A DNA stretch of 64,000 nucleotides, from sequence record NC_052654.1; one strand, given 5' to 3'. The translations under genes were made by a program, and so were the position numbers. The DNA comes from Escherichia phage vB_EcoM-Ro121c4YLVW. The notes under the pieces were generated by a model. It did no database searches and was not told the origin of the DNA. It was given only the letters and a program-made list of their open reading frames with translations. Shown here piece after piece: positions 2,978 through 40,952 of this stretch (its first letter is position 1; every line of letters begins with the position of its first letter).

Positions 2978-2983
2978 TTAATT

Positions 2984-3287: not shown

Positions 3288-3292
3288 TAATC

Positions 3293-3692: not shown

Positions 3693-3694
3693 TT

Positions 3695-8934: not shown

Positions 8935-8935
8935 T

Positions 8936-18670: not shown

Positions 18671-19669
18671 ATGACAAAACAGATTTCGGCTAGTATTATT
18701 GCGCATTCCATCACTGAAGACGGAAAAGAGATTGTAACTTTCGAACTTGAATATCCACGTATTATTCATTCAGAACTGATGACTCACCGCCTGTTCAGTC
18801 GTAACGCTGCTTCTAGCCGTGCTATACCTGTTAAAACATTGATCGAAATGGTGCGAAATCAGCCTGCTCGTCCTTATCGTTTTGGGGCTAACCAACCTGG
18901 TATGCAGGACAAAGGTGTTGACCATGATGCTCTTATTGATGCAGGTTATACTGCTCAAGAGTGGTGGGATCTTGCCGCGCTTAGTGCAGCACGTTTTGCA
19001 GAAGAATTCTCTTTGGCAGGGTACCACAAACAAGTTGCAAACCGTCTTCTGGAACCTTTCCAACGAATTAAAACAGTTCTGACAGCAACAGAATATGAAA
19101 ATTTCTGGTGGCTACGTGATGACAAAGAAGCCGATCCTACTATCGAAGCTTTGGCTAAAGAGATGCACAAAGAGTATGAAGGATCTACACCAGAAGTGCT
19201 GAAACCAGGGCAATGGCACACACCTTATGTAGACCATTTCTATGATAGTATTGGCACAGAAGGTGACGATCATTTTGTTTTTGGTGGATACTACGTTCAA
19301 GATGAATCTGGAGAAGTTGTTGTGCTTACTTTGGAAGAAGCCAAAGCTATTTCAGCTTCGTGTTGTGCACAGGTTAGCTATCGTCGTTTAAATGCAACTA
19401 AAGATAAAGCTTTAGATATCTATGGTCGTTTGCTGACTGGGCGTAAGGTTCATGCTTCTCCGTTTGAACATCAAGCTACTCCAATGCAAGAAACATGCGA
19501 ACAATATGGAGAGAACTGTTTTGAAGATTTGTTTATCAATGCTCCTTGGGATTTTAACTCTTGGGAACCAGGTATTACCCATGTAGATCGTAATGGTAAG
19601 TTTTGGTCTGGCAATTTCAAAGGCTGGATTCAACATCGTCAACTTTTAACAAATCATACTAAATGGTGA
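18671..19669 (+). CDS. thyX: flavin-dependent thymidylate synthase ThyX
   Basis: ThyX signature RHRLFSRNAASSRA (RHRx7-8S). Confidence 0.8.
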   Translation: MTKQISASIIAHSITEDGKEIVTFELEYPRIIHSELMTHRLFSRNAASSRAIPVKTLIEMVRNQPARPYRFGANQPGMQDKGVDHDALIDAGYTAQEWWDLAALSAARFAEEFSLAGYHKQVANRLLEPFQRIKTVLTATEYENFWWLRDDKEADPTIEALAKEMHKEYEGSTPEVLKPGQWHTPYVDHFYDSIGTEGDDHFVFGGYYVQDESGEVVVLTLEEAKAISASCCAQVSYRRLNATKDKALDIYGRLLTGRKVHASPFEHQATPMQETCEQYGENCFEDLFINAPWDFNSWEPGITHVDRNGKFWSGNFKGWIQHRQLLTNHTKW

Positions 19670-24656: not shown

Positions 24657-25649
24657 ATGCGCTATCTGGTAACAGGTGGTCTTGGTTTTATTGGGAGTGC
24701 CGTGGTGCGCTCTCTTTGTCAAGATCCTAATAACGAAGTTTTTGTCGTTGATAAGATGAGCTATGCAGCAGATATTGAGAATGTAGGCGATATCACTCAC
24801 GTTAAACTAAGCATGACAGATTTGGCAAACGAAGCCCAAGTAAAAAGTTTAGTAGTAGAGTGCAATCCCGATTTCATCATTCACTTAGCGGCAGAGAGTC
24901 ATGTGGATAATTCTATCAAGAATCCACGAGTTTTCATCGACTCCAATATTATTGGTACATACAATTTATTGGAAGCTGCAAGGCTCCTCCCAAAGAATAA
25001 ACTGAAGATGTTCGTACACGTCTCCACAGACGAAGTGTACGGCGATATGGCAGACTCTGGCGTTCCCTTTACCGAAGAGACAGCTTATGCCCCTTCAAGC
25101 CCATACAGTGCGTCTAAGGCAGCATCTGACCATCTTGTGAAAGCTTGGCACCGTACCTACGATTTGCCTGTTGTGATAACCAACTGCTCCAATAACTTTG
25201 GACCTTATCAACATCCAGAAAAGCTGATCCCAAAAATCATCACAAGTATTTTGACGAATAAAGAGATTCCGGTGTATGGTAAAGGCGATCAGGTGCGAGA
25301 CTGGCTTTTTGTTGAGGATCATGCGAGAGCTATTCTTCAAGTGGCAACAGGTGGAGAACCAGGCCAAACGTATAACGTTGGAACACGTAATCCCAAAACC
25401 AATATGGAGATCATCTATATGGTTTGTGACTACATGGATGCTGTACATCCAGAAGCAGGAACCTACCCTTCTTCCAACTTGATAACTTTTGTTGAAGATC
25501 GTAAAGGACATGACTTGCGTTATGAAATCAATCCTTCTAAGATAGAGTCTGAACTGGGTTGGAGTGCAAACTCTACATTTGAACAAGATCTCTACTCAAC
25601 GATTGAATGGTACTTAAACAACCCTCAATGGTGGAGTGAGAAGATTTAA
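24657..25649 (+). CDS. rmlB: dTDP-glucose 4,6-dehydratase
   Basis: Rossmann GGLGFIGS, catalytic YxxxK (YSASK), SDR-extended family length. Confidence 0.85.
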
Positions 25650-25657
25650 GGAGGGCT

Positions 25658-26536
25658 ATGAAAGGTATTATTTTGGCTGGAGGAAGTGGAACCCGCCTTC
25701 ATCCGGTAACACGCAGCGTGAGCAAGCAATTGCTCCCTGTGTATGACAAACCCATGATCTACTACCCTTTATCGGTATTGATGTTGGCTGACATTAAGGA
25801 TATCTTAATCATCACCACACCAGGCGATCAGGAAGACTTTGAGTATCTTCTCGGAGATGGGTCTATGTTTGGGATAAAACTCACTTACGCAATCCAATCC
25901 GAGCCACGAGGTCTTGCGGACGCTTTCATCATCGGTAAAGATTTTATCGGAGAAGACTCTGTTGCTCTTATTTTAGGTGACAACCTATTCTTCGGACAAA
26001 GCTTTGGTAAACTACTGATTAACGCCAGTGAGATGGTAGATGTTTGGGGCGGAGCTTGTATCTTCGGGTATTTGGTGAAAGATCCTGAACGATTCGGTGT
26101 GGTTGAATTTGGGAGTAATCGTCAAGCTATTTCTATTGAAGAGAAACCTGAAAATCCTAAATCAGATTACGCTGTCACAGGTTTGTATTTCTATGATAAC
26201 TCTGTTGTTCAACGTGCATTAGAAGTAACCCCTTCCGCGCGTGGAGAACTGGAGATCACAGATATCAATCGCAGCTACCTCGAAGACAGGAAGTTACAAG
26301 TGGAAGTTCTCGGACGAGGATTTACTTGGCTTGACACAGGAACACACGCCAGTCTGATGGAAGCTGGTCAATTCGTGCAGACTATTGAGAACCGGCAAGG
26401 ATTGAAGATTGCGTGCCTGGAAGAAATTGCTTTCAAAAAAGGGTGGATTTCTTTAGAGACTTTGGTGTATCATGGAAACTCACTGAAGAAAACAGAATAC
26501 GGGCAATACCTACTCAAATTAGCGGAGAGAAAATGA
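25658..26536 (+). CDS. rmlA: glucose-1-phosphate thymidylyltransferase
   Basis: N-terminal [16 protein letters not shown] nucleotidyltransferase signature; 292 aa. Confidence 0.85.
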
Positions 26537-27099
26537 AAGTAGAAAAAACAAAAATTGAAGGTGCGGTAATTATCAAACCAGACGTTTATAAAGATGATCG
26601 TGGTTTCTTTTTAGAAACATATAATGAACAAAAATACGAAGATATTATTGGTAGACAAACTTTCGTTCAAGATAACATGTCTAAATCAAACTTCGGTGTT
26701 TTGCGAGGAATGCACTTTCAAACAAATAATCCGCAAGGTAAGCTTGTTCGTTGTGTAAGTGGGGAAGTATTGGATTTCGCTGTAGACCTACGTAAAGATA
26801 GTCCTACTTACGGTGCTTGGGACGGTGTTGTTCTTCGTGCACGACACCATACACAGTTCTGGCTTCCACCTGGTTTGGCACATGGTTTTATAGTGTTGAG
26901 TATGGATGCTATCTTCGAATACAAATGCACAACTCCATACGACCCTTCCAGCGAACAAAGTTTACGTTGGGATGATCCTGATATAGGGATTGATTGGGGC
27001 TTCGATATGATTTTTGACGAAGATTTTAAACCTATCTTATCAACAAAAGATGCAATGGCTAAGTCTTTTCAACAGCTACGTAGCGAGGGTGTATGCTAA
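26533..27099 (+). CDS. rmlC: dTDP-4-dehydrorhamnose 3,5-epimerase
   Basis: Cupin-type RmlC (about 188 aa) beginning [14 protein letters not shown]; ATGA overlap with rmlA. Confidence 0.8.
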
Positions 27100-27935
27100 C
27101 ATATCTGGTATTGGGCGGTAATGGACAACTGGGACAAGCTTTACGTAAAGTGGCTCCTTCAAATGTATCTTTAATTTATCCTAAAGAACGTGTAGATATT
27201 ACAAATTTTGAAGCTGTGCGAAACGCTATTGTTGAAGATTATGTAGATGGTGTTATTAATTGCGCTGCTTATACGGCTGTAGATAAAGCAGAACATGATT
27301 TTGCTACTGCTTTGGCTGTTAATTCCTACGGCCCTGCAAACATTGCAGCAGTGTGCAGTAAACTTAAAATTGATTTTGTGCATATTTCTACAGACTATAT
27401 TTTTAATTACTCTCATCCTATTTTTGAAGATACTACACCTAACCCAATAAACAATTATGGGTATACGAAAGAACTTGGTGAAAAAATGGTGCGAGGAGTT
27501 AACCCAAATGCATATATTATTCGAACAGCCTCGGTATATAGCGAATTTGGAAATAACTTTCTAAAAACCATGTTGTCTCGCTATAATGATGGACAACGTG
27601 ATTTTATTATTGTTGCTGATCAGTTCTCTTGTCCAACATATGCTCCAGATTTAGCAGAAGCTATTTTTGAAGTATTAAAAACAGGTTGGTCAAGGTCTGT
27701 TAAGACTTACCATTTTGCAGGAAGCCATCTTATTTCTTGGGCGGAGTTTGCGGAAAAGATCTTGACACAGATGCCAGAACCTGTTAAGATATCGGCGGTA
27801 TCAGCTTCAACCTATAATGCTCCAGCAGCACGTCCGGTGAAGTCACAATTAGTAACCAGTCACTATCTTACAAAATCAGATTTAAATAAAGGTATTGAAC
27901 GGTCTTTAGCAGTATTACTTAATAAGGAGAGGTAA
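27093..27935 (+). CDS. rmlD: dTDP-4-dehydrorhamnose reductase
   Basis: Rossmann LVLGGNGQLG; completes the B-A-C-D operon. Confidence 0.75.
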   Translation: MLTYLVLGGNGQLGQALRKVAPSNVSLIYPKERVDITNFEAVRNAIVEDYVDGVINCAAYTAVDKAEHDFATALAVNSYGPANIAAVCSKLKIDFVHISTDYIFNYSHPIFEDTTPNPINNYGYTKELGEKMVRGVNPNAYIIRTASVYSEFGNNFLKTMLSRYNDGQRDFIIVADQFSCPTYAPDLAEAIFEVLKTGWSRSVKTYHFAGSHLISWAEFAEKILTQMPEPVKISAVSASTYNAPAARPVKSQLVTSHYLTKSDLNKGIERSLAVLLNKER

Positions 27936-28357: not shown

Positions 28358-28858
28358 ATGGCTAAAGTAGTAGATGAGTTTGATATGCTACGAGTCGATG
28401 AAGGACTGAAGCTTACTGTTTATCAAGACCATCTTGGTTATTGGACAGTCGGCATAGGACACCTTCTGACTAAAATAAAAGATAAAGCAAAGGCTATTCA
28501 AATCTTAGATAATCTCCTTGGTCGTAAGACCAATGGAGTTATCACAGAAAAAGAAGCCCGTCAAATCTTTGCTGACGATGTTGCAAAAGTGAAGAGAGAC
28601 ATAAAAAACAGTGCTATCTTATCACCAATCTATGATAAGGTGAGTGATACTCGTAAATTGGGAATAATCAACATGGTTTTCCAGTTGGGGTTAAAAGGTG
28701 CTGAAGGGTTTAAAAATAGCTTGACTTTAATCAGCAATGCATATTATACTCAAGCAGGTAAAAACATGCGTAAAAGCCGATGGTATAGCCAGACGCCAAA
28801 CCGTGCTGAACGAGTAATTAAAGTTCTGACTTCTGGAACTTTAGATGCTTACAACTAA
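28358..28858 (+). CDS. e: T4-type lysozyme (endolysin, gene e homolog)
   Basis: EMLRVDEGLKLTVYQD..GYWTVGIGHLLTK matches T4 lysozyme catalytic region (Glu, Asp, Thr). Confidence 0.9.
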   Translation: MAKVVDEFDMLRVDEGLKLTVYQDHLGYWTVGIGHLLTKIKDKAKAIQILDNLLGRKTNGVITEKEARQIFADDVAKVKRDIKNSAILSPIYDKVSDTRKLGIINMVFQLGLKGAEGFKNSLTLISNAYYTQAGKNMRKSRWYSQTPNRAERVIKVLTSGTLDAYN

Positions 28859-28860
28859 TA

Positions 28861-28880
28861 AAGGGGCTTCGGCCCCTTCT
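28861..28880 (+). terminator. hairpin AGGGGC-TTCG-GCCCCT
   Basis: Direct reading. Confidence 0.45.
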
Positions 28881-28895
28881 AAAAGGAGTGCTACT

Positions 28896-29654
28896 ATGGG
28901 AAATAAAACCGCAGCTAAAACACAACGGCAGAAACTGGCTAATTCAGCAAAGATTGAAAGCCGTTATGCAGCAAAAGCGGTAGGTAATGACGATTACCGT
29001 TTAGATGAATTTATGCCTGAAGGGGACCAAAATAAGATTGTTCAAAGCATGATTTGGAATGATCTGACTGTTGTAAATGCTCCGGCAGGGACTGGTAAAA
29101 CCTCTGTTGCTTTATGGAAAGCTTTGCAGATGCTTCGTTCAGGAGACTTCCGTAAACTACTTTTTATCAAGAACCCTACTGAAGTCGGAGATGACCAGAT
29201 TGGTTTCTTGTCTGGGGATAAAACAGATAAACTAGCAGCACACTATGAATCTACAAAACGTATTTTCCAGCAATTCATGACAGCCAACAAATTGGAAAAC
29301 GATATTGGATCAGGTAAGATCGAATTGAATATTCCTAACTATTTGTTGGGGGCTACCCTGGATAATACAATCGTCATTATTGACGAAGCACAACTCATGT
29401 CAACAGAAACACTTAAACTTCTTATTGAACGTGCAGGTATTAATACGCATGTTATTGTATTAGGCGATGTTCGCCAGACATATGCAATTAAAAAACGTAG
29501 CAATGGTCTGCATCAAATTTTGGAACTTTTATATCCAGAAAATGAAGAAGGTGTTCGTGAGCCAATTGTAGATTTTATTGGATACGTTGAACTGACAACG
29601 GACGATAATAAACGTGGACGTTTGTCTAAACTGATTACTGAAGTGTTTATTTAA
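28896..29654 (+). CDS. phoH: PhoH-like ATPase
   Basis: Walker A NAPAGTGKTS; start moved to Met after AAAAGGAG. Confidence 0.75.
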   Translation: MGNKTAAKTQRQKLANSAKIESRYAAKAVGNDDYRLDEFMPEGDQNKIVQSMIWNDLTVVNAPAGTGKTSVALWKALQMLRSGDFRKLLFIKNPTEVGDDQIGFLSGDKTDKLAAHYESTKRIFQQFMTANKLENDIGSGKIELNIPNYLLGATLDNTIVIIDEAQLMSTETLKLLIERAGINTHVIVLGDVRQTYAIKKRSNGLHQILELLYPENEEGVREPIVDFIGYVELTTDDNKRGRLSKLITEVFI

Positions 29655-29686: not shown

Positions 29687-30190
29687 TTGATGGGTGTAGC
29701 AACAATAGCTATCGGAAGAAGCGGTATAGATGAGTGCTATCAAACGGGACTCGTAAAACCTAACGAATTTCGTCAAATTTGTGTAAACCATATTGAAAAA
29801 GAGATTGCTCTTACTTTAGAGAATATGACCCTCCGAGATAAACTGGAAATGTTTAAATGTTGGTGTCTAGGAGAAGATTGGCTTTTAAACCATTTTCAAG
29901 AACTTTCTGATAGTAAAGAAAGCTTGTTTGATTGTATAATAGGAATAGCTGGCTCCGATCCTAGCCTTCTGCACATAACAGAAGAAGAGGCGAAGTTACT
30001 GTTCTTAAGTAATTTGTTTAATAAGAAAGCACTGCTTGTTCGTGATTGTAGTGATCTTCTTAATAACCCGCTCGCAACGTCTGATCAAATTTTTGTTGAC
30101 AAAGAGACACTACGTGCGATAGAATACATCTGCAAATATGTGAATGGCGGGAAAGCGGTTCTTAAAACATTAACAGAGGAGGAAGAATAG
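29687..30190 (+). CDS. hypothetical protein
   Basis: ORF track. Confidence 0.45.
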   Translation: MMGVATIAIGRSGIDECYQTGLVKPNEFRQICVNHIEKEIALTLENMTLRDKLEMFKCWCLGEDWLLNHFQELSDSKESLFDCIIGIAGSDPSLLHITEEEAKLLFLSNLFNKKALLVRDCSDLLNNPLATSDQIFVDKETLRAIEYICKYVNGGKAVLKTLTEEEE

Positions 30191-30882
30191 TGACGACAAT
30201 TATTGCAACCAAAAATAAGATTTTGAGTGACGGTAAGGTAACTTTTGGTGGACGTGTAGATTCTATTAATTTCAAAAAGGTCCGAAAAATTGGAGATTAC
30301 CTTGTAGGTGGTGCTGGTCGTCTGACCTCCGTGCTTTCTTTCTTTCAATGGTTTGAACAAAATCTACAGTGCGAAGCAGCACGTGATGCTGTCCCTGGTT
30401 TGATGATTCACTCTGATCCAGATAAAGAAGATGAAGAGTTTATTGCACTTGTTGTTCATCCAGACGGACGTATTTTCCTGCACGAAGGTAATAACCCAAC
30501 ACGTGCATATCCGATTGATGAAGAATATTATGCGGTAGGAAGCGGGTCAGACTTTGCTTTAGCTGCTCTTGATGCAGGGGCAACACCAGAACAGGCTATG
30601 GAAGTAGCTAAAAAGCGAGATGCTTTTTCTGGTGGTGAAACATTTATTGAAGAACAAGACGAGATTATTGAATTAACAGATGATGATTTAGAAAACTTCT
30701 CCAAAGAAGAATTGATCAATCTTTTGAAATTCGGTAATCCCTACGGTGAAGAAGAACCTCGTAACGTGGCAGGTAACGAGGCGGATACTGAAGAAAAATC
30801 TGTTGCAGAAAACAACTTGACTTCTAAATCTGAAAATATTAATCTCGTAAATGTGGCGGATTTCGAAGGAACCGCTATTTAA
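30190..30882 (+). CDS. HslV-like Ntn-hydrolase peptidase
   Basis: N-terminal MTTIIAT (Thr nucleophile after Met), GG and AVGSGSDFALAA blocks; acidic C-terminal extension. Confidence 0.5.
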   Translation: MTTIIATKNKILSDGKVTFGGRVDSINFKKVRKIGDYLVGGAGRLTSVLSFFQWFEQNLQCEAARDAVPGLMIHSDPDKEDEEFIALVVHPDGRIFLHEGNNPTRAYPIDEEYYAVGSGSDFALAALDAGATPEQAMEVAKKRDAFSGGETFIEEQDEIIELTDDDLENFSKEELINLLKFGNPYGEEEPRNVAGNEADTEEKSVAENNLTSKSENINLVNVADFEGTAI

Positions 30883-30927: not shown

Positions 30928-31362
30928 ATGTTACAAGTTCCTGCTAAGTTTGTTGAAGGCGCTATCCACTCTTACCGTCAAACATGTAAGAGGGCAAGAA
31001 ACTGTTTAGATGGTCTGGTGGCAAAAACCTATACTGTTGAAAAGAAGAAACGTTGGTTTGGCAAAGATGTTTACGAAGTTAATATTTTTGGTGAACATAA
31101 ACTAAACCACGATACTCCTGAAAACATGTTAGAAATATTTCTAAGAGATGACAAAATATCTCCTATGGATTACCAACTTTTAAAATTTTATGATTCTTCT
31201 TTGGCTATTGATAAGTTTGTTGAAGATATTCTGTCTAGAAAAACAGATAAAAACACTTATCCTCTAGAGGCTGATCAAATAGGATTATTAAACGAGATTT
31301 CATCCTTTAAAGAGTTGGATAATATTACAAAAGAGGAGATTTTAGATGGCATTAGATTATGA
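30928..31362 (+). CDS. hypothetical protein
   Basis: ORF track. Confidence 0.45.
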   Translation: MLQVPAKFVEGAIHSYRQTCKRARNCLDGLVAKTYTVEKKKRWFGKDVYEVNIFGEHKLNHDTPENMLEIFLRDDKISPMDYQLLKFYDSSLAIDKFVEDILSRKTDKNTYPLEADQIGLLNEISSFKELDNITKEEILDGIRL

Positions 31363-31855
31363 TCGCCCAACGAGCGATTATTATCCGACACCGCAAAAAG
31401 CAATCAATAGTTTGTTTAGTGTTATAGATTTCAAAAATCTAAAGGAAGAAGGTTGGGTTTTTGCAGAACCTTGCAGAGGTGAAGCTGAAGCGATTTATCG
31501 CCATTTTCCTGAAGGTTCAGAATATTGCGAACTTGAAGAAGGTAAAGATTATTTTAGTCATGAATGGGAAAATCGTCCCGACATTATAATCACAAATCCT
31601 CCATTTAAGTTAGCAATGGAGTTCTTGGAAAAGAGCTTAAAAGAGGCGGATGTTTGTATTTATCTTCTTCGGTTGGGCTTCTTGGAGTCAAAGAAACGAC
31701 GAGAGTTCCATCAAAAGAATCCACCAACAAACCTTATAGTCCTTTCAGAACGGCCTTCGTTTGTTGCAGGTGGAACAGATAAGACAGCATACGCTTGGTA
31801 TGTATACGACCCAAAGAATCGTTTGGGCCTCTCTCAACCATTTTATTTTGTTTAA
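31346..31855 (+). CDS. phage Dam-type N6-adenine DNA methyltransferase (small, NPPF motif)
   Basis: IIITNPPF catalytic motif in about 170-aa protein. Confidence 0.5.
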   Translation: MALDYDRPTSDYYPTPQKAINSLFSVIDFKNLKEEGWVFAEPCRGEAEAIYRHFPEGSEYCELEEGKDYFSHEWENRPDIIITNPPFKLAMEFLEKSLKEADVCIYLLRLGFLESKKRREFHQKNPPTNLIVLSERPSFVAGGTDKTAYAWYVYDPKNRLGLSQPFYFV

Positions 31856-31867
31856 GGAGTGTGAACT

Positions 31868-32104
31868 ATGGGTAAACTAATTATGACAGTGGCTATTGAT
31901 TTTGATGAAGTAGATGAAAGCCTCAACCTTTCACTTTCTACTGACGTAGATGGCGAAATGGATAATATTGAAGCAGCTACTGCTCTTTTCTTCAAAAAAG
32001 CCATTGAAGTTTATGCCGAACATGCTGCAAATCAGGCAGTAGATTACGGTGGTATCGTGCGAGCTTTAGTTCACTCTACCGAGGGCAATGACTGGGAAGA
32101 TTAA
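31868..32104 (+). CDS. hypothetical acidic protein
   Basis: ORF track. Confidence 0.4.
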   Translation: MGKLIMTVAIDFDEVDESLNLSLSTDVDGEMDNIEAATALFFKKAIEVYAEHAANQAVDYGGIVRALVHSTEGNDWED

Positions 32105-32307
32105 TGGCTTACAATTATTACTGCATTTATGCACATGAAAAGAAAAAAGGTGACACTGGGACTAACGTTTATGCAGAGTCCGAATCTCATGCAAAAGAGA
32201 TTGGTGCTATCCTTTTATCACGCTGGACTGGAAATAATTACAGTGCAGAAGATATGTTTGCAGAAGTGGATTCTAGTATCCAAGAAGACAACATAACAAC
32301 TACGTGA
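32104..32307 (+). CDS. hypothetical protein
   Basis: ORF track. Confidence 0.4.
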   Translation: MAYNYYCIYAHEKKKGDTGTNVYAESESHAKEIGAILLSRWTGNNYSAEDMFAEVDSSIQEDNITTT

Positions 32308-32352
32308 TATACTTATACTCCCTTTTCGGAGGGAGTATTTTAAGGAGGGATT

Positions 32353-32547
32353 ATGCAGAGCGGAGAAGAACTTTTAGAGAAACAATTCTCAACGCGTCAA
32401 CAAGCTTTAAGTTATATGGTTTTTCTAAGCAATCTTGATGTGAATGAGATACTTTTACGGCGCGAAGGTAATTTCTGGAGCGTTAAATATCATGCAACAA
32501 GGTCTGTAATCTACCTGGAAGAGGCGGAATTCTCTTTGGTAGAATGA
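32353..32547 (+). CDS. hypothetical protein
   Basis: ORF track; SD AAGGAGGG. Confidence 0.45.
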   Translation: MQSGEELLEKQFSTRQQALSYMVFLSNLDVNEILLRREGNFWSVKYHATRSVIYLEEAEFSLVE

Positions 32548-33134
32548 TCCGAGGAGTAGTTATGCGTTCAACTTTCACTGGCAAAATAAATGCTGGTTTG
32601 ATTTTTACAGCAGTAAGCATTCTTAGCAAAAAGTTTAAAGTTGTTAACTTACCTGTGTGTGTCGATTTCGATCATGTTTTTGATCCTTCGAACCCCACTC
32701 GTTGCATAGTAAGGAGTAATGTTGAAAACCCAACAGAAAATCTTTTTTATGTAACAAAACCATCTCAAAGCATACTTAACCAGGTTGAGGCGAAATTGAT
32801 ACCTAACGGTAAATATTACTCCTTTTTACCTTGTAAGTCGGTTGAAGTAGAGAATAGCAATACTTTCGCTAATAACTTGTCTGTATTCGTTTTCTTTGTT
32901 TCACAGGAAGACGAAACAGATGAAATGGTAGCAACAGTGAGATCACTTTATGACTCTTTAGGGGTTGTTTATAGTCAACAGGTGTGCGAAAATAATAAAT
33001 CCTGTGTAGATTTCATTATCAACGGTATTTGTGTTTGTAGAGTAGAATCTTTTTGGCTGCACGATACATATGTGACTGTAGCAGAGGTTATATCTGAACC
33101 AAGATTTAGTCATGCGGTTTCGTTAATAATTTGA
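32544..33134 (+). CDS. hypothetical protein
   Basis: ORF track. Confidence 0.45.
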   Translation: MIRGVVMRSTFTGKINAGLIFTAVSILSKKFKVVNLPVCVDFDHVFDPSNPTRCIVRSNVENPTENLFYVTKPSQSILNQVEAKLIPNGKYYSFLPCKSVEVENSNTFANNLSVFVFFVSQEDETDEMVATVRSLYDSLGVVYSQQVCENNKSCVDFIINGICVCRVESFWLHDTYVTVAEVISEPRFSHAVSLII

Positions 33135-33144
33135 GGAGGAAGGA

Positions 33145-33474
33145 ATGGAAATTACTACAGAACAAGCCCTTATCGACGAGGGTCGTAAAATCTTAGAAAA
33201 GTATTTAGGGGAGATTCATAAAACCCCTGGCTATTTGGGTTGGAGAATTGTTGAAGCTGTAGATTTCCTTCCTCGTAACAGTAAAAGCGTCGAAATGCGA
33301 TCTCTTTTCTTATTAGTAAAGGTGGACGGGGATACACCTTTTAAAGATGCCGCAGAACATATTGAAAAAGTTGAAGAGAAAGCTTATGCAGAATTTGCCG
33401 ATCTTGTTTTAGAACAAGAGATTGAAGGAAAGGTGAATATTTTTATTTTCTTAGATTTTGAGGAGGATAAGTGA
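33145..33474 (+). CDS. hypothetical protein
   Basis: ORF track. Confidence 0.45.
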   Translation: MEITTEQALIDEGRKILEKYLGEIHKTPGYLGWRIVEAVDFLPRNSKSVEMRSLFLLVKVDGDTPFKDAAEHIEKVEEKAYAEFADLVLEQEIEGKVNIFIFLDFEEDK

Positions 33475-34214
33475 TCATACACAGAGAAATTACTGTTAAA
33501 AGCGATCAAGATCTTTTTATAATTGGAGATCTACACGGTTGTTATAATTTGTATGAAAAAGGAAAGGCAAAGTTAGGTATCCGAGATACAGATGTGGTTG
33601 TATCTCTAGGAGATCTTACTGACCGTGGAAAGCAAAACTTTCGTTGTGTTTTAGAATTTACTCGTAAACACAATCGCTACGCTATTCGTGGCAATCATGA
33701 AGACATGATGATTAAAGGTATGCTGGAAGGAGATCGTAGCTACTACGAGTGTTGGTATCAAAATGGAGGATATACGGTCTTTGAAGAATGTGGTGAAGAA
33801 GGAGCTACAGCCTTAGCAATGATGACAGAAGATTTACCTGTTGTTCTCATTGTTAACTACAGAGGCATGAAACTTGCGTTTATTCATGGTGGGTATCCAT
33901 CTTCTTTGGAATATCTCCCTGTAACAGATATTCCAGAATACATTTCGAAGATGACAAAAACACAGGAAAACCGTTTTGCTGAAGCACTTATGTGGGACAG
34001 AGATATGGTAGACTGTGCTAAAGAGGGAATGAAACTTCCTGTTGTGATGGGTGTGGATTATGTGTTTCATGGACACTCTTATGTAAAAACACCTATTATC
34101 AATGCGAATCGTGTTTATATGGATACTGGATCTGTGTTCAATAATAACTTAACATTTGCTTATTTCGATATGGACGGTGGTCTTCAATTTTATTCAACTC
34201 TTGAGGAGGATTAA
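33471..34214 (+). CDS. PPP-family Ser/Thr protein phosphatase (lambda-phosphatase-like)
   Basis: GDLHG, GDLTDRG, GNHE metallophosphatase motifs. Confidence 0.7.
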   Translation: MIIHREITVKSDQDLFIIGDLHGCYNLYEKGKAKLGIRDTDVVVSLGDLTDRGKQNFRCVLEFTRKHNRYAIRGNHEDMMIKGMLEGDRSYYECWYQNGGYTVFEECGEEGATALAMMTEDLPVVLIVNYRGMKLAFIHGGYPSSLEYLPVTDIPEYISKMTKTQENRFAEALMWDRDMVDCAKEGMKLPVVMGVDYVFHGHSYVKTPIINANRVYMDTGSVFNNNLTFAYFDMDGGLQFYSTLEED

Positions 34215-34522
34215 TGTATAAGATTACAATTATTCAAAGTGTAGGTAATATCCGTAAAGAAGTTATCTTAGAAACAGAAGATGTTAATCTTGTTCGTGAG
34301 ATTGTTCTTAAGGAAGATAACCTGCAAGCTGTAGAATCAGATGCACCGAATCTTATGGTGGATCAAGAATATTCTGAACTTCGTCGTATTTTTGAAGAGA
34401 TTCAGAAGAAAGAAACACAACCTACCATAAAACCTTTTGGCCCTTATGATCCGAGCAATCCTAGCAGTCCTTGGATCATGAGAAATACGGAACCCTATAC
34501 ACCTTTTGAAATTACTTGTTGA
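34214..34522 (+). CDS. hypothetical protein
   Basis: ORF track. Confidence 0.4.
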   Translation: MYKITIIQSVGNIRKEVILETEDVNLVREIVLKEDNLQAVESDAPNLMVDQEYSELRRIFEEIQKKETQPTIKPFGPYDPSNPSSPWIMRNTEPYTPFEITC

Positions 34523-34529
34523 GGTGATT

Positions 34530-35111
34530 ATGGCAGAACTGTTCTATACGGGAGTTGGAAGTAGAGACATATCCGAAGAAGAGTGGGCTTTGATGGTAGG
34601 CATAGGGAAATGGCTTTCAAACCTTGGGTTTAAATTAAGGTCTGGGAAGGCAGAGGGTAGTGATTCTGCTTTTGAAACAGGTGTCCAAGAGTCTGAAAAT
34701 CCTACTAACAAGGAGATTTATGTTCCTTGGGAAAATTTCAAAGGTAATCAGATTCCAGGGGATGTTATTGTTCTTGCAAAACCAGATACAATGAACTATG
34801 CTATCTCTGTGCAATGGATCAAAGATGTTCACCCAGCCTATGAAAAGCTTAAGCAGGGTGCTAGAAAATTGCACCAACGTAATGTGCATCAAGTGTTAGG
34901 TAGAGATTTGGAGAATCCTGCTCCATCATGTTTCTTGTTGGCTTGTGCTAATACTGATAAACATGGAGATGCAAAAGGTGGAACAGCTACGGCTTGGAAG
35001 ATAGCTAAAGCCAATAATGTTCCTTGTTTAAACATTCGTGGGAAAACAAAACAAGAGATTTACGATTTTCTACGACCTTTGGTAATGAGGGCAATAACAA
35101 GTGATTCCTAA
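34530..35111 (+). CDS. Rossmann-like SLOG/DprA-like nucleotide-binding protein (tentative)
   Basis: GVGSR...SGKAEGSD glycine-rich pattern; start moved to Met after GAGGTG. Confidence 0.3.
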   Translation: MAELFYTGVGSRDISEEEWALMVGIGKWLSNLGFKLRSGKAEGSDSAFETGVQESENPTNKEIYVPWENFKGNQIPGDVIVLAKPDTMNYAISVQWIKDVHPAYEKLKQGARKLHQRNVHQVLGRDLENPAPSCFLLACANTDKHGDAKGGTATAWKIAKANNVPCLNIRGKTKQEIYDFLRPLVMRAITSDS

Positions 35112-35613
35112 ACGTAAACGTGGTGAACAAAGAACAAACTTGGCAGAAATCTTAGATTACAACATGGTTAATGATGTGACAAAAGAAATTCTGCCTGTTG
35201 TAGAAGATATTCTTCAAAGAGGGTTACGATTCTGCTCGGATCGGGTGCATTTCATGTGGACACATAAAAGTGACTCCGCTTTGAATTTCTATCCTTTGGA
35301 TTATACTCTGAACAATACAGAGATGAAAGATATCAACAAATACTTAATGGGATATAAAGATATAACCGAAACCGTTCTTGGAGAATTGGCAGAAATCTTG
35401 GCTAACGATATCCTTAGAAATATTAATAAGGCTCTTGACAGAAGCCCAGCAGGAGTAGTAGTATCTTTTGCTGTGCCAGATATGGTTAAATATGAGTCTA
35501 CAATACCTAATAAAGCTTATGCCTTTCTTCGGAGAGACGTTCGTGGAAATGTGTTGGAGATGGAGTCAAACTACAAGATTGAGGAGGTTTTATGGCAGAG
35601 TTCGGATCAGTAA
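35101..35613 (+). CDS. hypothetical protein (GTG start)
   Basis: ORF track. Confidence 0.4.
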   Translation: MIPKRKRGEQRTNLAEILDYNMVNDVTKEILPVVEDILQRGLRFCSDRVHFMWTHKSDSALNFYPLDYTLNNTEMKDINKYLMGYKDITETVLGELAEILANDILRNINKALDRSPAGVVVSFAVPDMVKYESTIPNKAYAFLRRDVRGNVLEMESNYKIEEVLWQSSDQ

Positions 35614-35882
35614 CAAGTTTTGAAAGTAACTTCGTTACCGCTTGGGAAGCTTGGGATGAAATGGGTGTTGGGGAACTTTATTTTTACAATGTAACACTAC
35701 GTCCAGAGTATGCTTACCTGGTACCAGAAGGAACAGTTCAAATTGGCATGTATCTGTCTTCTCAAGACGGTGTTGTTCAATTTGAGTTTTATTCAAACAC
35801 AACGGACAACGAATTTACATATCGTGCATTTCATGTCAACATGTCTTTAGGAGAGGAGAAATTTTATGACGACCAAGTTTAA
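35592..35882 (+). CDS. hypothetical protein
   Basis: ORF track. Confidence 0.4.
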   Translation: MAEFGSVTSFESNFVTAWEAWDEMGVGELYFYNVTLRPEYAYLVPEGTVQIGMYLSSQDGVVQFEFYSNTTDNEFTYRAFHVNMSLGEEKFYDDQV

Positions 35883-36063
35883 AACAGTAGAAGAAGCCGT
35901 AAAAGCAGCTTATGAGGCTTTAGCGGAAGCAGAGCAGTTAGCAGATGAGACTGGTAAAGGTTTCCGTTTCTCCCCTGAATATGGGATGGGTGGCTATTAT
36001 GATCCAGAAGATGAAAATGAGAATACTGGAACAAATTGGCATCCATCTTCTTTAAGTTGTTAA
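35866..36063 (+). CDS. small protein, C-terminal W-H-P-S-S-L-S-C family member 1
   Basis: ORF track; shares C-terminal WxSSxC tail with two downstream genes. Confidence 0.45.
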   Translation: MTTKFKTVEEAVKAAYEALAEAEQLADETGKGFRFSPEYGMGGYYDPEDENENTGTNWHPSSLSC

Positions 36064-36074
36064 TAGGAGGTAGA

Positions 36075-36350
36075 GTGGGAATCGAAGATATCAAAGGTTA
36101 TAAGGCGCATACTGACGATAAGATTGGCAAGGTTAACGCTATTAAAGATGCAGAAGAGCGTTTAGGTTTAATCTTCAAAGCTTTAGAGGAAGAGTATTGT
36201 GAAGCATATCATGGGTCTTTTGACGGCACAGAAAAAGAATTAGGTCTTGCATACGAACGTATTGATCAAATCCGTTGTGCTATTAGACATTTAAAAGAAG
36301 CTAGTATGTGGGCTTGTCGTTCAGTTTTCCAACCAGAGGAGAAATACTAA
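36075..36350 (+). CDS. hypothetical protein (GTG start)
   Basis: GTG after AGGAGG within ORF 36036..36350. Confidence 0.4.
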   Translation: MGIEDIKGYKAHTDDKIGKVNAIKDAEERLGLIFKALEEEYCEAYHGSFDGTEKELGLAYERIDQIRCAIRHLKEASMWACRSVFQPEEKY

Positions 36351-36568
36351 TGAGTGATCGTAATGTTGAAGAATTAACTGAAAAAGCCCAAGCTATTATG
36401 GCTTTAGTGGACGAACTTACAAAAGAAGCTGAAGATGCTGGTTTTGGTCTTAGTTTAGAAAATGACGCAATCTGTTTTGAAGATTGGCAATCCTCTTCTT
36501 GTTATGGTGAAGGTGATGATGGTTTCGTCGTTAATTCTCAAGGTGTTTGGCACAGTAGTAGCTGTTAA
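36350..36568 (+). CDS. small protein, C-terminal W-H-S-S-S-C family member 2
   Basis: Internal Met after GAGGAG. Confidence 0.45.
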   Translation: MSDRNVEELTEKAQAIMALVDELTKEAEDAGFGLSLENDAICFEDWQSSSCYGEGDDGFVVNSQGVWHSSSC

Positions 36569-36577
36569 GGAGAGATT

Positions 36578-36850
36578 GTGGAGTCTGAAGGCGAACTGCT
36601 GATAAAAAAGAAAGTTAAAGAGATGGAACAAGCACAAAGAAAGTTTCGTAAGGAGATTGAAGAACTTTGTGAACAGTTTCAGGAACAAGCTTGGATAGGT
36701 GACTACGGTAACGGAGAAACTTATTACCCTACAGGAACGCCAGCCGCAGATCACTATATTGATTTCATTTGTGAAGATTATGGTGTAGAGTTGGATGAAA
36801 ATGGTTTAACCACAAGAGGTGTTTGGATCTCTTCTTCCTCAATGTGTTAG
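36578..36850 (+). CDS. small protein, C-terminal W-I-S-S-S-S-M-C family member 3
   Basis: ORF track; GTG start after AAGGAGAG. Confidence 0.45.
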   Translation: MESEGELLIKKKVKEMEQAQRKFRKEIEELCEQFQEQAWIGDYGNGETYYPTGTPAADHYIDFICEDYGVELDENGLTTRGVWISSSSMC

Positions 36851-36858
36851 TAAATAAT

Positions 36859-36881
36859 AACCCGCTTCGGCGGGTTTTTTA
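36859..36881 (+). terminator. intrinsic terminator ACCCGC-TTCG-GCGGGT + TTTTTT
   Basis: Direct reading. Confidence 0.6.
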
Positions 36882-36910
36882 TTGACAGGAATCTGGAAGC
36901 TTGATAAACT
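36882..36910 (+). promoter_or_regulatory. sigma70-like promoter TTGACA-N17-TAAACT
   Basis: Direct reading. Confidence 0.45.
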
Positions 36911-36940
36911 TAACCTATCAACCAATAGAGGAGAAATATT

Positions 36941-37882
36941 ATGGTGTTAATTGGTAGCCGTGCATTGCAAATTCATGCTATGGACATGGGAAAAGACTTG
37001 TATCGCCCTTGTGTAGATTTAGATTACCTGTGTACAGAACAAGAGTGGGAAGAATTATCAAAAATGTTCTCTCAAGAGGAGTTTGTTGAACTTGTAGAAC
37101 GTAAAGGAAACAAAGGCCATGTCAAAATGATAGCTGGTGCACATTTGGAATACGATATTGCTTCTCAAGGAGATAGCACAGAAGCTTTGATTAGTTATTG
37201 TGAAGATTCTGATGATGTTCGTCGAACTTACGCTGGACATGTTGTTGCTCCTTTAGATGTGCTCTACCTTCTTAAAATGAGTCATCGTTTTAAAAAGGAT
37301 AGTCCTCACTTCTTTAAAACTATGAAAGATATTCATTTCATGCGGTCACTGGGCGCAAAGATCCCAGAAAATCTTAAGAGTATTTATGAGTTGCGTGAGA
37401 AAGAAACATACACTTACTCTCATCCGAACTTAAACGTAAAAAGTAAAGACTTTTTTAAAGGTGATGAGGTTCCGTATGTTTATGATCATGATTCTATCCA
37501 TGAAGCAATCGCGGTAATGGATGCTCCGGCATATAAATCTTATATGAAAGATGGAAGTGAAGTTATGACCAGCAAAGAAAAGTTTTTTGCTCAACCAAAA
37601 CATGTGCGCCTGTTAGGTGTTTATGAAGAAGCGTGTGTTTTGGCTTTGGAACGTTCACAAATTCCTTTCGGTGGAGAGATCGGAGGTCCAACCCCTAAGC
37701 AAAGTTTTATAATGGCTTTATCTAAAGTCTGCACATCCATCACTAGTGGTTGGTTTAGGGAATATGCTTGGGAAAACTTTTATGTTGTTATTAAGCTATA
37801 TGAAAACATGGGCGAAAACGACTATGTTGAACGTTTTAAAGCTAATCAACATGTAGTAAAGCCTTTTGAAGGAGGTTATTAA
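36941..37882 (+). CDS. hypothetical protein (313 aa)
   Basis: ORF track. Confidence 0.5.
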   Translation: MVLIGSRALQIHAMDMGKDLYRPCVDLDYLCTEQEWEELSKMFSQEEFVELVERKGNKGHVKMIAGAHLEYDIASQGDSTEALISYCEDSDDVRRTYAGHVVAPLDVLYLLKMSHRFKKDSPHFFKTMKDIHFMRSLGAKIPENLKSIYELREKETYTYSHPNLNVKSKDFFKGDEVPYVYDHDSIHEAIAVMDAPAYKSYMKDGSEVMTSKEKFFAQPKHVRLLGVYEEACVLALERSQIPFGGEIGGPTPKQSFIMALSKVCTSITSGWFREYAWENFYVVIKLYENMGENDYVERFKANQHVVKPFEGGY

Positions 37883-37883
37883 T

Positions 37884-38279
37884 ATGTGTGGATATCTTTC
37901 AGAAAGTTATTTCAAAGTGACGCACGAGGATTTAGAAAAAGCACGATTGAAACTGACAGCTATTATTGAATACTCTAATACTGTTGATCACAGATTAAAG
38001 ACTACTAAAGTATCTGTTCCTTGTTGGTTAGGTTTACGGCATAAAATAATGTCTCAACATGACCATGTTGTTCGAGAGATGCATGGTTGGTGTTGGTTTC
38101 ACGATGTGGCTCTGCATTTTGGTTATATTACAGAAGAAGAGCATAGATTCTGTGAACTAACATATCGTATTCCAACCCTTCACGATTTAGATTTGTGGAA
38201 GAAAGCAAACGAGATTTTTCTTACAGAAAGTGATTGGCGTAAAGTTATGGCTTGTCTTGAATGGAGGGGTAATGAGTAA
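37884..38279 (+). CDS. hypothetical protein
   Basis: Internal Met of ORF 37866..38279 after GGAGG. Confidence 0.45.
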   Translation: MCGYLSESYFKVTHEDLEKARLKLTAIIEYSNTVDHRLKTTKVSVPCWLGLRHKIMSQHDHVVREMHGWCWFHDVALHFGYITEEEHRFCELTYRIPTLHDLDLWKKANEIFLTESDWRKVMACLEWRGNE

Positions 38280-38955
38280 AACAGTTTTGTCTATGTTTGA
38301 CGGATCTGGGATCATGGTGTTACGTTATGCCGAAGCAGGTCACAAGTGTTTTTGTGTAAACGCTGATGAAGGGGATCACGGTAAATACGAGGTTAGGATG
38401 GAGCACCCAAACATAACCTATGTGAATGCCTGGATAGATTCTACATTCAACCCTGAAGATCATGGGATACCTAAACCCGATATTATTTTTGGATTTCCAC
38501 CTTGCACTATGTTAGCAGGTAGTGGTAGCAAACACGAACGCAGCACAGAGGAATTGGATGAAGCTTTAGCTAATATTCGTGTAGTGGAAGCTTTGGGTAA
38601 CAAATATAATGTTCCTTGGATGATTGAGAACCCAGTAGGTAAACTTTCAACCTTATGGCGTAAACCCGATTTTTACTTTGATCCTTATGAGTATGGTGGG
38701 TATTTGTTTGAAGAGGAAGGAAGCTTTCATCCTAAAATGCCTACCCGTGATGGGTATACAAAGAAAACTTGTATTTGGCACGGCAATGGTTTTGTTCAAC
38801 CAGTGAAGAAACCAGTAGATCATATAGGCTGCTTCTGGGGTTGGAAAAGCTTAGGTGGAGCTAGTGCAAAAACAAAACAACTTAGATCACTAACCGCACG
38901 TGGTTTTGCTCGTGCAGTGTTTTTGTCTAACAATCTTCTAGATAAGGAGAAATAA
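38272..38955 (+). CDS. C5-cytosine-methyltransferase-like SAM-dependent enzyme (tentative)
   Basis: Motif order FDGSG (I), GFPPC (IV, PC), ENP (VI-like), R-rich C-terminus; short for a complete Dcm. Confidence 0.4.
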   Translation: MSKTVLSMFDGSGIMVLRYAEAGHKCFCVNADEGDHGKYEVRMEHPNITYVNAWIDSTFNPEDHGIPKPDIIFGFPPCTMLAGSGSKHERSTEELDEALANIRVVEALGNKYNVPWMIENPVGKLSTLWRKPDFYFDPYEYGGYLFEEEGSFHPKMPTRDGYTKKTCIWHGNGFVQPVKKPVDHIGCFWGWKSLGGASAKTKQLRSLTARGFARAVFLSNNLLDKEK

Positions 38956-39608
38956 TGTTAAATTCAAAACCAGTGGTTGCTTATCAAGTAGATCGTAATG
39001 ATGGTGAAGGAAGTGTTGTTATTTTCAGTACACACGGTCTTGAGGCTCGTCGAAAAGGTGCATATCGTTTAGAATGTGAGTTTGAAGACTGCACAAGCCA
39101 CCGTGTCAAACAATTCGATCAATATGCTGATAAAGGCTTCGTCCCTATCAAAGCGTTACTGGAAGATGGTTGGTGGGTATATTCTGCTTTTGATTACTCA
39201 AAACTGGAGGAGTCAGCTTCGTGCGCCTCCGAGATCGAATATGATGATTACTATGACACTCTATACCTTCCAGAATGGCTTGTCTTTTCTCCTGATGAGA
39301 GAAGTGTCTGGAAAACGTGGGAAGAAATGGAGAGACATGCGTATAGCATCAATGAAGCTTTAGATCGTAAAACTTGGTTTATTGAGGCAGTAAAGGCGGC
39401 ATACCCCCAATTCTCATTCTGTGATTTCACTGGCGGCCCAGGATACATTACACATACAGCCTCTTTTGAGTTTCCTGGTTCACGTTATAAGGGTAATGTT
39501 TATTGGGACTGGGATGAAAATAAACAACCTTCGGCTCAAGACTTCCGTTGCTATGTTTGTCAAGGCGATCAAGAAGCCCTTGACAAATACCTACAAAATC
39601 TGGTATAG
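38955..39608 (+). CDS. hypothetical protein
   Basis: ORF track. Confidence 0.45.
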   Translation: MLNSKPVVAYQVDRNDGEGSVVIFSTHGLEARRKGAYRLECEFEDCTSHRVKQFDQYADKGFVPIKALLEDGWWVYSAFDYSKLEESASCASEIEYDDYYDTLYLPEWLVFSPDERSVWKTWEEMERHAYSINEALDRKTWFIEAVKAAYPQFSFCDFTGGPGYITHTASFEFPGSRYKGNVYWDWDENKQPSAQDFRCYVCQGDQEALDKYLQNLV

Positions 39609-39624
39609 TGCCAGCATCTGAACA

Positions 39625-39653
39625 AAGCCTCCTGTTTCAGGGGGCTTTTCTTT
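39625..39653 (+). terminator. intrinsic terminator AGCCTCCTG-tttc-AGGGGGCT + TTTTCTTTT
   Basis: Direct reading. Confidence 0.55.
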
Positions 39654-39666
39654 TATAGGAGGGAAT

Positions 39667-40152
39667 ATGTTTCAAGTAAATGTCAATGTGCATAATAGTT
39701 ACTCTGATTGTGAAACGTGTGGCTATAATTCATCTAATGTTATTCGTATTAGTGGCGATTTAGGAGAAGCTTCTTTTGGAGAAGAAGCAAGTTGCTTTAG
39801 TGGTATGGATGCAGAATGGAATGATATTGCACATTGGTTAGTGAGCAAACTAAAAGAAAAAGAGAAACCATTTCCTACTCTGCTTGATCGTTCTCTTGTG
39901 GAAGATGCAGGTAAAGCATATGCAGACTATGCGTATGCAGACGGGAAATATTTGGAAGATGATAAGGCTAACCATTTGCTTTATGTTTACTATGAAGCTG
40001 AATCTGCCTACGATAATTATTACAGCATGTCTAACATCCTACGTCTGTTTGCAGAGTTTGATATTTATTTCGAAGTAGAATTTTCAGAAGATGATACTTA
40101 CGAGTACAATTCTTATGATCCATTTGAGGAGGAAGAATGCCAAGACGAGTGA
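39667..40152 (+). CDS. hypothetical acidic protein
   Basis: ORF track. Confidence 0.45.
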   Translation: MFQVNVNVHNSYSDCETCGYNSSNVIRISGDLGEASFGEEASCFSGMDAEWNDIAHWLVSKLKEKEKPFPTLLDRSLVEDAGKAYADYAYADGKYLEDDKANHLLYVYYEAESAYDNYYSMSNILRLFAEFDIYFEVEFSEDDTYEYNSYDPFEEEECQDE

Positions 40153-40952
40153 TTTTTGTAAGCGGTGCAGGTTTAAGTGCAGACAGTGGGATTCGAACAT
40201 TTAGAACAGACACAGATAGTGGTCGTGCTTTATGGGAAGAATATGATTTAGAAGAGGTCTGCGATATTGGAGCTTTCCAAGCAGGTTATCGTGTTAGAAC
40301 ATCTCCAGATCTTCCAGTGGTCGGTGGTGTAGACGAGAACGGTATGGATTTGTATGCCAAAACACACGAATTTTATAACAAAAGACGTGTTGAGCTTAAA
40401 GATGTACAACCTAATGCTGCACATATTCAAATAGCAAAGTGGTTTAAGGAATATCCTAACCAAATAGTAAACTTGACAACAAACGTTGATGATCTACTAG
40501 AGCGAGCAGGTGTAGACAGAGATTCTGTTATTCACGTACACGGATATCTTCCTGAAGTAGTTTACCGTATGCATCCCGGAGATTACAAAACACTGGTAGA
40601 TATTGGTTACAATAGTATAAACATAGATGATTATAACTGGGTGAAGCCTAATGTTGTATTTTTTGGTGAGGCTGCACCTTTGTATGCAGATATGGCTCAC
40701 TTGTTCGATACTTTGACCATGCAAGATTTGGTTGTAGTAGTAGGATGTTCAAACCAAGTTATCAATTTTAATTGGGAATTATTTCCTGCACTTAGTATGG
40801 GTACAAAAATGGTTGTAGTTAACCCTGGAGTTAATTACGAAGAAACACTTCTCTATGAAGATCGTGGAGTTTTTGTTTACCGAGAAAAAGCTGCAACAGC
40901 CTTCAGCAATGAAGGTTTCATTAAAATGGTCGAAGACCACTTAAACAAATAA
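40137..40952 (+). CDS. Sir2-family (sirtuin-like) NAD-dependent protein
   Basis: N-terminal FVSGAGLSADSGIRTFR matches sirtuin NAD-binding signature; VHVHGYL catalytic His region. Confidence 0.65.
   Translation: MPRRVIFVSGAGLSADSGIRTFRTDTDSGRALWEEYDLEEVCDIGAFQAGYRVRTSPDLPVVGGVDENGMDLYAKTHEFYNKRRVELKDVQPNAAHIQIAKWFKEYPNQIVNLTTNVDDLLERAGVDRDSVIHVHGYLPEVVYRMHPGDYKTLVDIGYNSINIDDYNWVKPNVVFFGEAAPLYADMAHLFDTLTMQDLVVVVGCSNQVINFNWELFPALSMGTKMVVVNPGVNYEETLLYEDRGVFVYREKAATAFSNEGFIKMVEDHLNK

Follow-up and report, generated by a model that had tools for sequence, protein, structure and literature searches.

The 64,000-nucleotide stretch of Escherichia phage vB_EcoM-Ro121c4YLVW DNA analysed here (NC_052654.1; called the window below) carries two plus-strand open reading frames (ORFs) that an original prediction, made from the letters alone, had picked out as methyltransferase genes: ORF-A (31346-31855, 169 residues) and ORF-B (38272-38955, 227 residues). 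Both genes are real at these coordinates, and the motifs quoted for them lie where they had been placed and are invariant in their families. Each begins with ATG and has the same boundaries as a coding sequence in the RefSeq annotation of the near-identical phage Mt1B1_P17, where both bear the product name ‘DNA methyltransferase’. A Shine-Dalgarno sequence, read from the plus strand, precedes each of them, GAGGAG at 31333-31338 for ORF-A (7 nt before the ATG) and GGAGGGG at 38263-38269 for ORF-B. From the sequence and the ORF list, the gene upstream of ORF-A ends at 31362 and so overlaps it by 17 nt, while ORF-B overlaps the genes on both sides, the stop codon of the upstream one falling at 38277-38279. 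The ORF-B start at ATG 38272 agrees with the N-termini of its homologues; a GTG further upstream, at 38230, does not.

The region that holds the two genes (31000-39700) agrees with Escherichia phage vB_EcoM-Ro121lw at 99.8% identity and exceeds 98% identity to dozens of further genomes of Phapecoctavirus (Stephanstirmvirinae), the genus of phAPEC8-like E. coli myoviruses with genomes of about 150 kb. Both methyltransferases are at least 99% identical across 63 records and are core genes of the genus. That the two genes are what they seem is far beyond chance, given the E-values of their PHROG matches, their hundreds to thousands of homologues, and confident AlphaFold2 (AF2) models that match methyltransferase folds.

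ORF-B among the C5-cytosine methyltransferases

ORF-B matches phrog_757, ‘DNA methyltransferase’, over residues 1-225 (E 1.8e-84), and the three C5-methyltransferase motifs first noticed in it are all present, in canonical order and invariant. Motif I, F9-D-G-S-G13 (38296-38310, plus strand), aligns with FSGAG of M.HaeIII, and across 46 homologues its residues D10, G11, S12 and G13 are all invariant. Motif IV, G74-F-P-P-C78 (38491-38505), contains the catalytic cysteine; P76 and C78 are invariant in the same 46 proteins and align with PPC of M.HaeIII and with C82 of the Dcm of phages K42 and KarlJaspers. Motif VI, E119-N-P121 (38626-38634; canonically ENV), is equally invariant and aligns with E128 of KarlJaspers Dcm and with LENV of phi92 gp043, and a lysine pair, K164-K165 (38761-38766), is the alignment counterpart of the substrate-binding K175/K176 of K42 Dcm. 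Closer to the C-terminus, LRSLTxRGFARAV (204-216) looks motif-IX-like, and motifs VIII (QxRxR) and X (GNAV) are not identifiable by eye in the alignment. Between ENP and the motif-IX-like RSLTxRGFARA lie only some 85 residues, leaving no target-recognition domain of normal size, and the suspicion that the protein is too short to hold one is thus confirmed (227 residues, against 329 in phi92 gp043). The same interval is highly conserved throughout the family, which suggests that its members may share one specificity.

The family is large and widespread. At least 870 homologues were found, the best 120 of them at 60% identity or more and 210-267 residues long, and tblastn places the family in 1486 records of phages, among them Drexlerviridae, Vequintavirus, Krischvirus, Dhillonvirus and Webervirus, in which the BASEL collection labels it ‘Dcm-like C5 cytosine methyltransferase’. 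One homologue, P0064, has a precomputed match to the C5-methyltransferase profile PF00145. The original prediction had allowed that fold prediction might assign ORF-B to an RNA methyltransferase family; the top matches are instead DNA enzymes, the AF2 model (predicted local distance difference test score, pLDDT, 88) finding DNMT3A/B, M.HaeIII and MET1 as its top 50 PDB structures in Foldseek (E 9e-7 to 4e-5, probability 1.0).

The most informative relative is the KarlJaspers protein bas06_0055, which is 50% identical to ORF-B along the full length (E 1e-71; 236 and 227 residues, respectively). The genome of KarlJaspers is 95% identical to that of K42, a Drexlerviridae phage whose 711-bp ‘Dcm’ gene raises the level of 5-methylcytosine (5mC) in multicopy single-stranded DNA (msDNA), as measured by LC-MS (liquid chromatography coupled to mass spectrometry), and whose activity is abolished in a C82/E128/K175/K176 quadruple mutant (bioRxiv 10.1101/2023.08.16.553469). 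These residues, required for K42 activity, align with C78, E119, K164 and K165 of ORF-B. The same work identified K42 Dcm as the phage trigger of retron Ec86 and found it toxic when overexpressed (bioRxiv 10.1101/2023.08.16.553469). ORF-B and the K42/KarlJaspers enzyme (Bas06, phrog_757) therefore have in common full-length homology, size, the catalytic cysteine, the motif VI glutamate, the lysine pair, a DNMT3A-like predicted fold and the status of a stand-alone gene. They differ in that the latter is a siphovirus gene and ORF-B a myovirus gene, and in the divergence of residues 173-200, so that specificity could differ between them. ORF-B is thus a short Dcm-like C5-cytosine DNA methyltransferase and, by analogy with this characterised enzyme, is predicted to form 5mC.

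Canonical PF00145 enzymes (M.HaeIII, M.HhaI, E. coli Dcm and phi92 gp043) share with ORF-B the motifs I (FxGxG), IV (PC) and VI (EN-), in the same order, and the fold of the catalytic domain, but ORF-B is about 100 residues shorter, has no target-recognition domain of normal size, reads ENP rather than ENV, lacks a GNAV motif X and falls short of the PF00145 threshold. It does not appear to be close to E. coli Dcm itself, as aligning the family profile with the single E. coli Dcm sequence in hhalign gave a match at motif IV only. The canonical type is nevertheless found at the equivalent position of a sister genus: in phi92 (Justusliebigvirus) the 329-residue gp043, a canonical C5 methyltransferase (PF00145, E 3e-44), aligns with ORF-B across motifs I-VI only, at 25% identity, and is flanked by homologues of the genes that flank ORF-B (a 137-residue protein upstream, E 1e-13, and a 217-residue protein downstream, 67% identity). 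Because gp043 and ORF-B sit between homologous flanking genes, the position is a C5-methyltransferase slot in which one type of enzyme has been replaced by the other between Phapecoctavirus and Justusliebigvirus. A conserved module of genes around ORF-B was also considered and rejected; a homologue in a distant metagenomic phage has other neighbours, and because the neighbours differ there, ORF-B is a stand-alone enzyme.

ORF-A and its likely substrate

ORF-A encodes a minimal N6-adenine-type S-adenosylmethionine (SAM)-dependent methyltransferase that lacks a target-recognition domain. It matches phrog_799, again ‘DNA methyltransferase’ (E 2.8e-59), and its motifs follow one another contiguously in the order X-I-II-III-IV. 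Motif X, D11-Y-Y-P-T-P16 (31376-31393, plus strand), has invariant or nearly invariant Y13, T15 and P16 and aligns with QYFTP of EcoKI HsdM; motif I, the SAM-binding loop E41-P-C-R-G-E-A47 (31466-31486), has E41, P42 and C43 invariant and G45 nearly so in 51 homologues; and in motif IV, the catalytic amino-methyltransferase motif IIITNPPF at residues 80-87 (31583-31606), T83, N84, P85 and P86 are invariant in the same 51 proteins, with N84 and P86 remaining so among 56 distant members. E62 and D68-Y69 are further conserved positions, and motif I (41-47) and NPPF (84-87) are only 37 residues apart. In an AF2 model of high confidence (pLDDT 90) the chain stops at residue 169, beyond the final β-strands of the Rossmann fold. 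The reading of IIITNPPF as an amino-methyltransferase signature is borne out by the fold search, and the N6-adenine chemistry of ORF-A is well supported by this modelling, because every top structural neighbour is an N6-adenine methyltransferase.

The description of ORF-A as ‘Dam-type’, by contrast, has to be given up. No Dam profile matches it, while the genuine phage Dam of KarlJaspers scores 2.3e-60 on PF05869, and its motif order is that of the gamma class. Dam enzymes of either kind (the E. coli and T4 alpha-class GATC enzymes and the T1-type PF05869 family) share with ORF-A the N6-adenine methylation and a (D/N)PP(Y/F) motif, and 11 of the 56 distant relatives of ORF-A match PF05869 weakly. 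In alpha-class Dam enzymes, however, the target-recognition domain sits between motifs I and IV, where ORF-A has no such insertion. The gamma-class N6-adenine DNA methyltransferases (M.TaqI, EcoKI HsdM, Eco57I/MmeI and CamA) are a better match, with the same order of motifs X (YxTP), I, II, III and IV (NPPF) and the same catalytic-domain fold, though these are proteins of 380-550 residues or more and ORF-A, at 169 residues, has neither their C-terminal target-recognition domain nor a specificity subunit, and remains under all Pfam thresholds. The genes flanking ORF-A encode small proteins of unknown function, none of them an adjacent specificity subunit.

The family is again very large. Homologues occur in 542 phage records, from Stephanstirmvirinae and Vequintavirinae to phages of Vibrio, Aeromonas, Listeria and Staphylococcus. 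Searched with the family profile, a set of 1.84 billion representatives yielded 13,701 clusters (50% identity) at E <= 1e-3, of which 436 reach E <= 1e-30. Among the top 150 representatives one protein has 560 residues and all others are short, and the longer or fused relatives, checked for DNA-binding domains, contained no informative domains.

DNA and RNA were both considered as the substrate of so small an enzyme. A small ribosomal RNA (rRNA) or transfer RNA (tRNA) methyltransferase of the METTL5/PH1948/RsmC kind, forming N6-methyladenine (m6A) or N2-methylguanine (m2G) in the host or phage translation apparatus, would resemble it in several respects. METTL5 and PH1948 are likewise of about 170-200 residues with an NPPF motif, ORF-A has no target-recognition domain, KsgA, Erm and TrmM are among the fold matches, and the phage has ten tRNAs as well as RNA-repair genes. 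The fold does not settle the substrate, because DNA and rRNA enzymes score alike: METTL5 fits ORF-A as well as MmeI (13.0) and M.TaqI (12.9) do, and HsdM and CamA are among the Foldseek tops. In hhalign, family profiles set against one E. coli sequence each of HsdM, RsmC and Dcm give only short alignments of one or two motifs that cannot separate DNA from RNA enzymes, motifs X and I aligning with EcoKI HsdM and the surroundings of NPPF with RsmC (80% probability). Sub-threshold Pfam matches among the 56 distant members are more telling, with EcoRI_methylase in 13, Dam in 11, Eco57I in 8 and N6_Mtase in 5, as compared to MTS in 7 and UPF0020 in 3; on balance these weak matches favour DNA m6A families by 37 to 12. 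PADLOC returned Type II methyltransferase models only, the best match included. METTL5 moreover depends on TRMT112 as its partner and modifies rRNA, while the ORF-A family is overwhelmingly phage-borne and spread over unrelated hosts, as is typical of anti-restriction DNA methyltransferases. Because the weak sequence links lead mostly to DNA families and the distribution is phage-wide, ORF-A is best read as an m6A methyltransferase of DNA, which is reasonably probable; an RNA substrate is a serious rival, though we consider it unlikely.

Restriction-site avoidance and the proposed role of methylation

Considering both genes together, it is likely that the phage makes two independent orphan SAM-dependent DNA methyltransferases, encoded in its early/middle gene block, that serve anti-restriction and have no tie to its rhamnose genes. 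ORF-B would use Cys78 of motif IV and Glu119 of motif VI to produce 5mC in double-stranded DNA, probably at a CCWGG-like site if the analogy with its characterised homologue holds, and ORF-A would most likely place m6A on phage DNA at a motif that is probably short or relaxed. Both enzymes would act after replication and mask a subset of restriction sites, with the remainder of the genome protected through avoidance of such sites.

Counts of restriction-type palindromes are in keeping with this division of labour. Avoidance is very strong in the window and in the Mt1B1_P17 genome. Of the six-mer palindromes expected five times or more in the 150-kb Mt1B1_P17 sequence, 54 in all, 16 occur at less than half of their expectation, as compared to 1.3% of non-palindromic six-mers, and CTGCAG, GGATCC, CAGCTG, CCATGG, GCATGC, TCCGGA and GGCGCC are wholly absent. 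Among four-mers, GTAC stands at 0.31 of expectation (z -14.6) and both GGCC and CCGG at 0.38, while GATC (1.02) and CCWGG (0.93) are not avoided. This is the pattern expected of DNA that can be cut, apart from a few methylated motifs. The related Certrevirus CB7 has this pair of methyltransferase types too, and ordinary enzymes (BglII, SspI, BamHI and ClaI) digest its DNA (PMC7344957).

Several observations weigh against the proposed pair of protective DNA methyltransferases. Neither protein is recognised by general profile libraries, ORF-B having no Pfam match at E <= 0.01 (the PF00145 threshold is missed) and no NCBIfam match, and ORF-A no match in Pfam or NCBIfam, Dam profiles included. Nor did single-sequence or profile searches of the PDB give a significant match to either, the best being M.HaeIII (E 0.08) and DpnA (E 0.027). 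The CCWGG specificity of K42 Dcm was assumed from the analogy with E. coli Dcm and not mapped; it was tested only by mutation of the msDNA site, in a dcm+ host (bioRxiv 10.1101/2023.08.16.553469). Finally, Vequintavirinae and phi92-like phages were found to be ‘exceptionally susceptible’ to restriction-modification (RM) ‘despite a putative dTDP glycosylation machinery’ (BASEL, PMC8594841). Homologues of these methyltransferases are present in the Vequintavirinae relatives, and the phi92-like phages have ORF-A at 85% identity, a C5 methyltransferase and rmlBACD; such sensitivity in relatives with the same enzymes means that any protection is narrow. Our literature search found no methylome, LC-MS or restriction-digest data on Phapecoctavirus DNA.

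The strong restriction of relatives also raises the idea that the enzymes do act on DNA but mainly for another end, either regulation, such as the timing of replication or packaging in the manner of P1 Dam, or the production of a signal that defence systems detect, as with retron Ec86. The finding that methyltransferase genes of Drexlerviridae have no simple link to restriction resistance (PMC8594841) would fit this, as would the triggering of the retron by, and the toxicity of, the homologous K42 Dcm. There is, however, no known regulatory target, the exchange of one C5 methyltransferase for another in a single slot between sister genera is typical of arms-race genes, and CCWGG and GATC are the very palindromes that escape avoidance. 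A main role outside anti-restriction therefore seems very improbable, and protection of a limited set of sites by two orphan DNA methyltransferases is preferred.

Gene context and the rhamnose genes

The two genes belong to a single long plus-strand gene block, extending from about 6 kb to 41 kb of the window as judged from GC skew and the ORF list. The other genes to which the original prediction had linked them are all real by Pfam: a MazG-like gene (12536-13261), a 5'-nucleotidase gene of the NT5C type (18053-18661), a divergent ThyX-like gene (18671-19669) and a complete set of deoxythymidine diphosphate (dTDP)-rhamnose genes, rmlB, rmlA, rmlC and rmlD (24657-27935). The ThyX-like protein has 332 residues, of which only 22-174 match, and then only the C-terminal two-thirds of the Thy1 profile (E 5e-8). 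Like Nrd, the ThyX, NT5C and MazG genes are of the ordinary nucleotide-pool kind. That the methyltransferases stand in the same block as the dTDP-sugar operon is true in so far as one early/middle block of roughly 35 kb holds them all on a single strand, but they begin 3.4 kb (ORF-A) and 10.3 kb (ORF-B) downstream of rmlD, with many unrelated genes between.

Nor do the rhamnose genes and the methyltransferases keep company within the genus. A 1.9-kb segment comprising rmlB and rmlA (24657-26536) is a presence/absence polymorphism: the rml region is covered to at least 80% in 40 of 70 Phapecoctavirus records, and in about 25 (Mt1B1_P17, ZCKP1, anhysbys and nepoznato among them) only rmlC and rmlD remain. 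Roughly one genome in three of the genus has lost rmlB and rmlA yet retains both methyltransferases, and neither methyltransferase is mechanistically tied to the dTDP-rhamnose genes.

The original prediction had gone further and suggested extensive chemical modification of the phage DNA, possibly beyond methylation, and the idea of rhamnose on DNA is already in print as speculation (PMC7552041; PMC10844046). In such a pathway, for example, phage glycosyltransferases would attach rhamnose, supplied as phage-made dTDP-rhamnose, to 5mC or another base after further processing of that base. The window does contain the complete rmlBACD set, and outside it four consecutive glycosyltransferase genes stand beside primase-helicase and DNA polymerase genes (NC_052662.1 45046-48190). 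In the family of one glycosyltransferase, gp103, 15 of 16 members weakly match the TET-associated glycosyltransferase profile PF20691, but all of these matches are below the curated cut-off (best E 1.1e-4; 19.5 against 27.5 bits) and the same proteins match the generic GT2 family. Of the 17 gp103 homologues found none is named or has a Pfam domain, and there is no PDB sequence match. No ThyA-type hydroxymethylase and no TET, JBP or other 2-oxoglutarate-dependent dioxygenase is annotated in Mt1B1_P17 up to position 150,200 of 151,202, at the sensitivity of annotation and Pfam only. One could still imagine ORF-B marking cytosines that an unrecognised oxidase and the glycosyltransferase cluster then convert into a motif-restricted rhamnose adduct, leaving most sites exposed, an arrangement we regard as very improbable. 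A later study counts Stephanstirmvirinae among the phages attacked by nuclease defences whose presumed target is unmodified DNA. With restriction sites strongly avoided, phi92-like phages exceptionally RM-sensitive despite having rmlBACD and a C5 methyltransferase (PMC8594841), rmlB and rmlA dispensable in genomes that keep both methyltransferases, many unrelated genes between the two sets and no annotated hydroxymethylase or TET enzyme, the claim of extensive modification beyond methylation is not upheld, and a hypermodification pathway is highly unlikely. Virion proteins or host surface glycans are more conventional targets for the rhamnose and glycosyltransferase genes.

Around the methyltransferases the block encodes a PhoH-like ATPase (28845-29654), an HslV/proteasome-like peptidase (30190-30882), a NinI-type Ser/Thr phosphatase (33471-34214), a DprA-like protein (phrog_768; 34527-35111) and a Sir2-family protein (40137-40952), and a distant metagenomic phage repeats a similar early-gene set (Sir2, Metallophos and resolvase). 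Two genes upstream of ORF-B lies one for a 313-residue protein (36941-37882) that matches DUF7275 (E 7.5e-76) and DUF7277 (E 1.1e-13). A 196-residue protein (32544-33134) is labelled ‘histidyl tRNA synthetase’ (phrog_4806); it has no Pfam match and the label looks unreliable. Elsewhere in the window, ten tRNA genes (two Met, and one each for Ile, Pro, Gln, Gly, Thr, Asn, Ser and Arg) occupy 1757-3769 on the minus strand, and 8383-9868 with the next gene encode a calcineurin-like phosphoesterase, a T4 Rnl1-type RNA ligase and an AAA_33 kinase-like ATPase (this last in the Mt1B1_P17 equivalent), a cluster that looks like an RNA (tRNA) repair cassette. Mt1B1_P17 has a third gene with the RefSeq name of a DNA methyltransferase, gp148, which we rejected as one; its product contains an XkdF-type protease domain (PF14550, E 1.4e-11) and the name is probably a misannotation.

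The presence of the two genes is in itself ordinary and already known, as dozens of Phapecoctavirus records give identical proteins the annotation of DNA methyltransferase, and the family of ORF-B is the experimentally characterised short C5 family. The methyltransferases offer no handle on the target of the rhamnose and glycosyltransferase genes of the phage. The family of ORF-A is of wider interest: it is very large, its members are about 170 residues long and have no target-recognition domain, Pfam model or solved structure, and finding its substrate would fill a real annotation gap. As for ORF-B, its presence predicts that these broad-host-range therapeutic phages make 5mC, and in hosts that possess retron Ec86 (Eco1) they may consequently trigger it.

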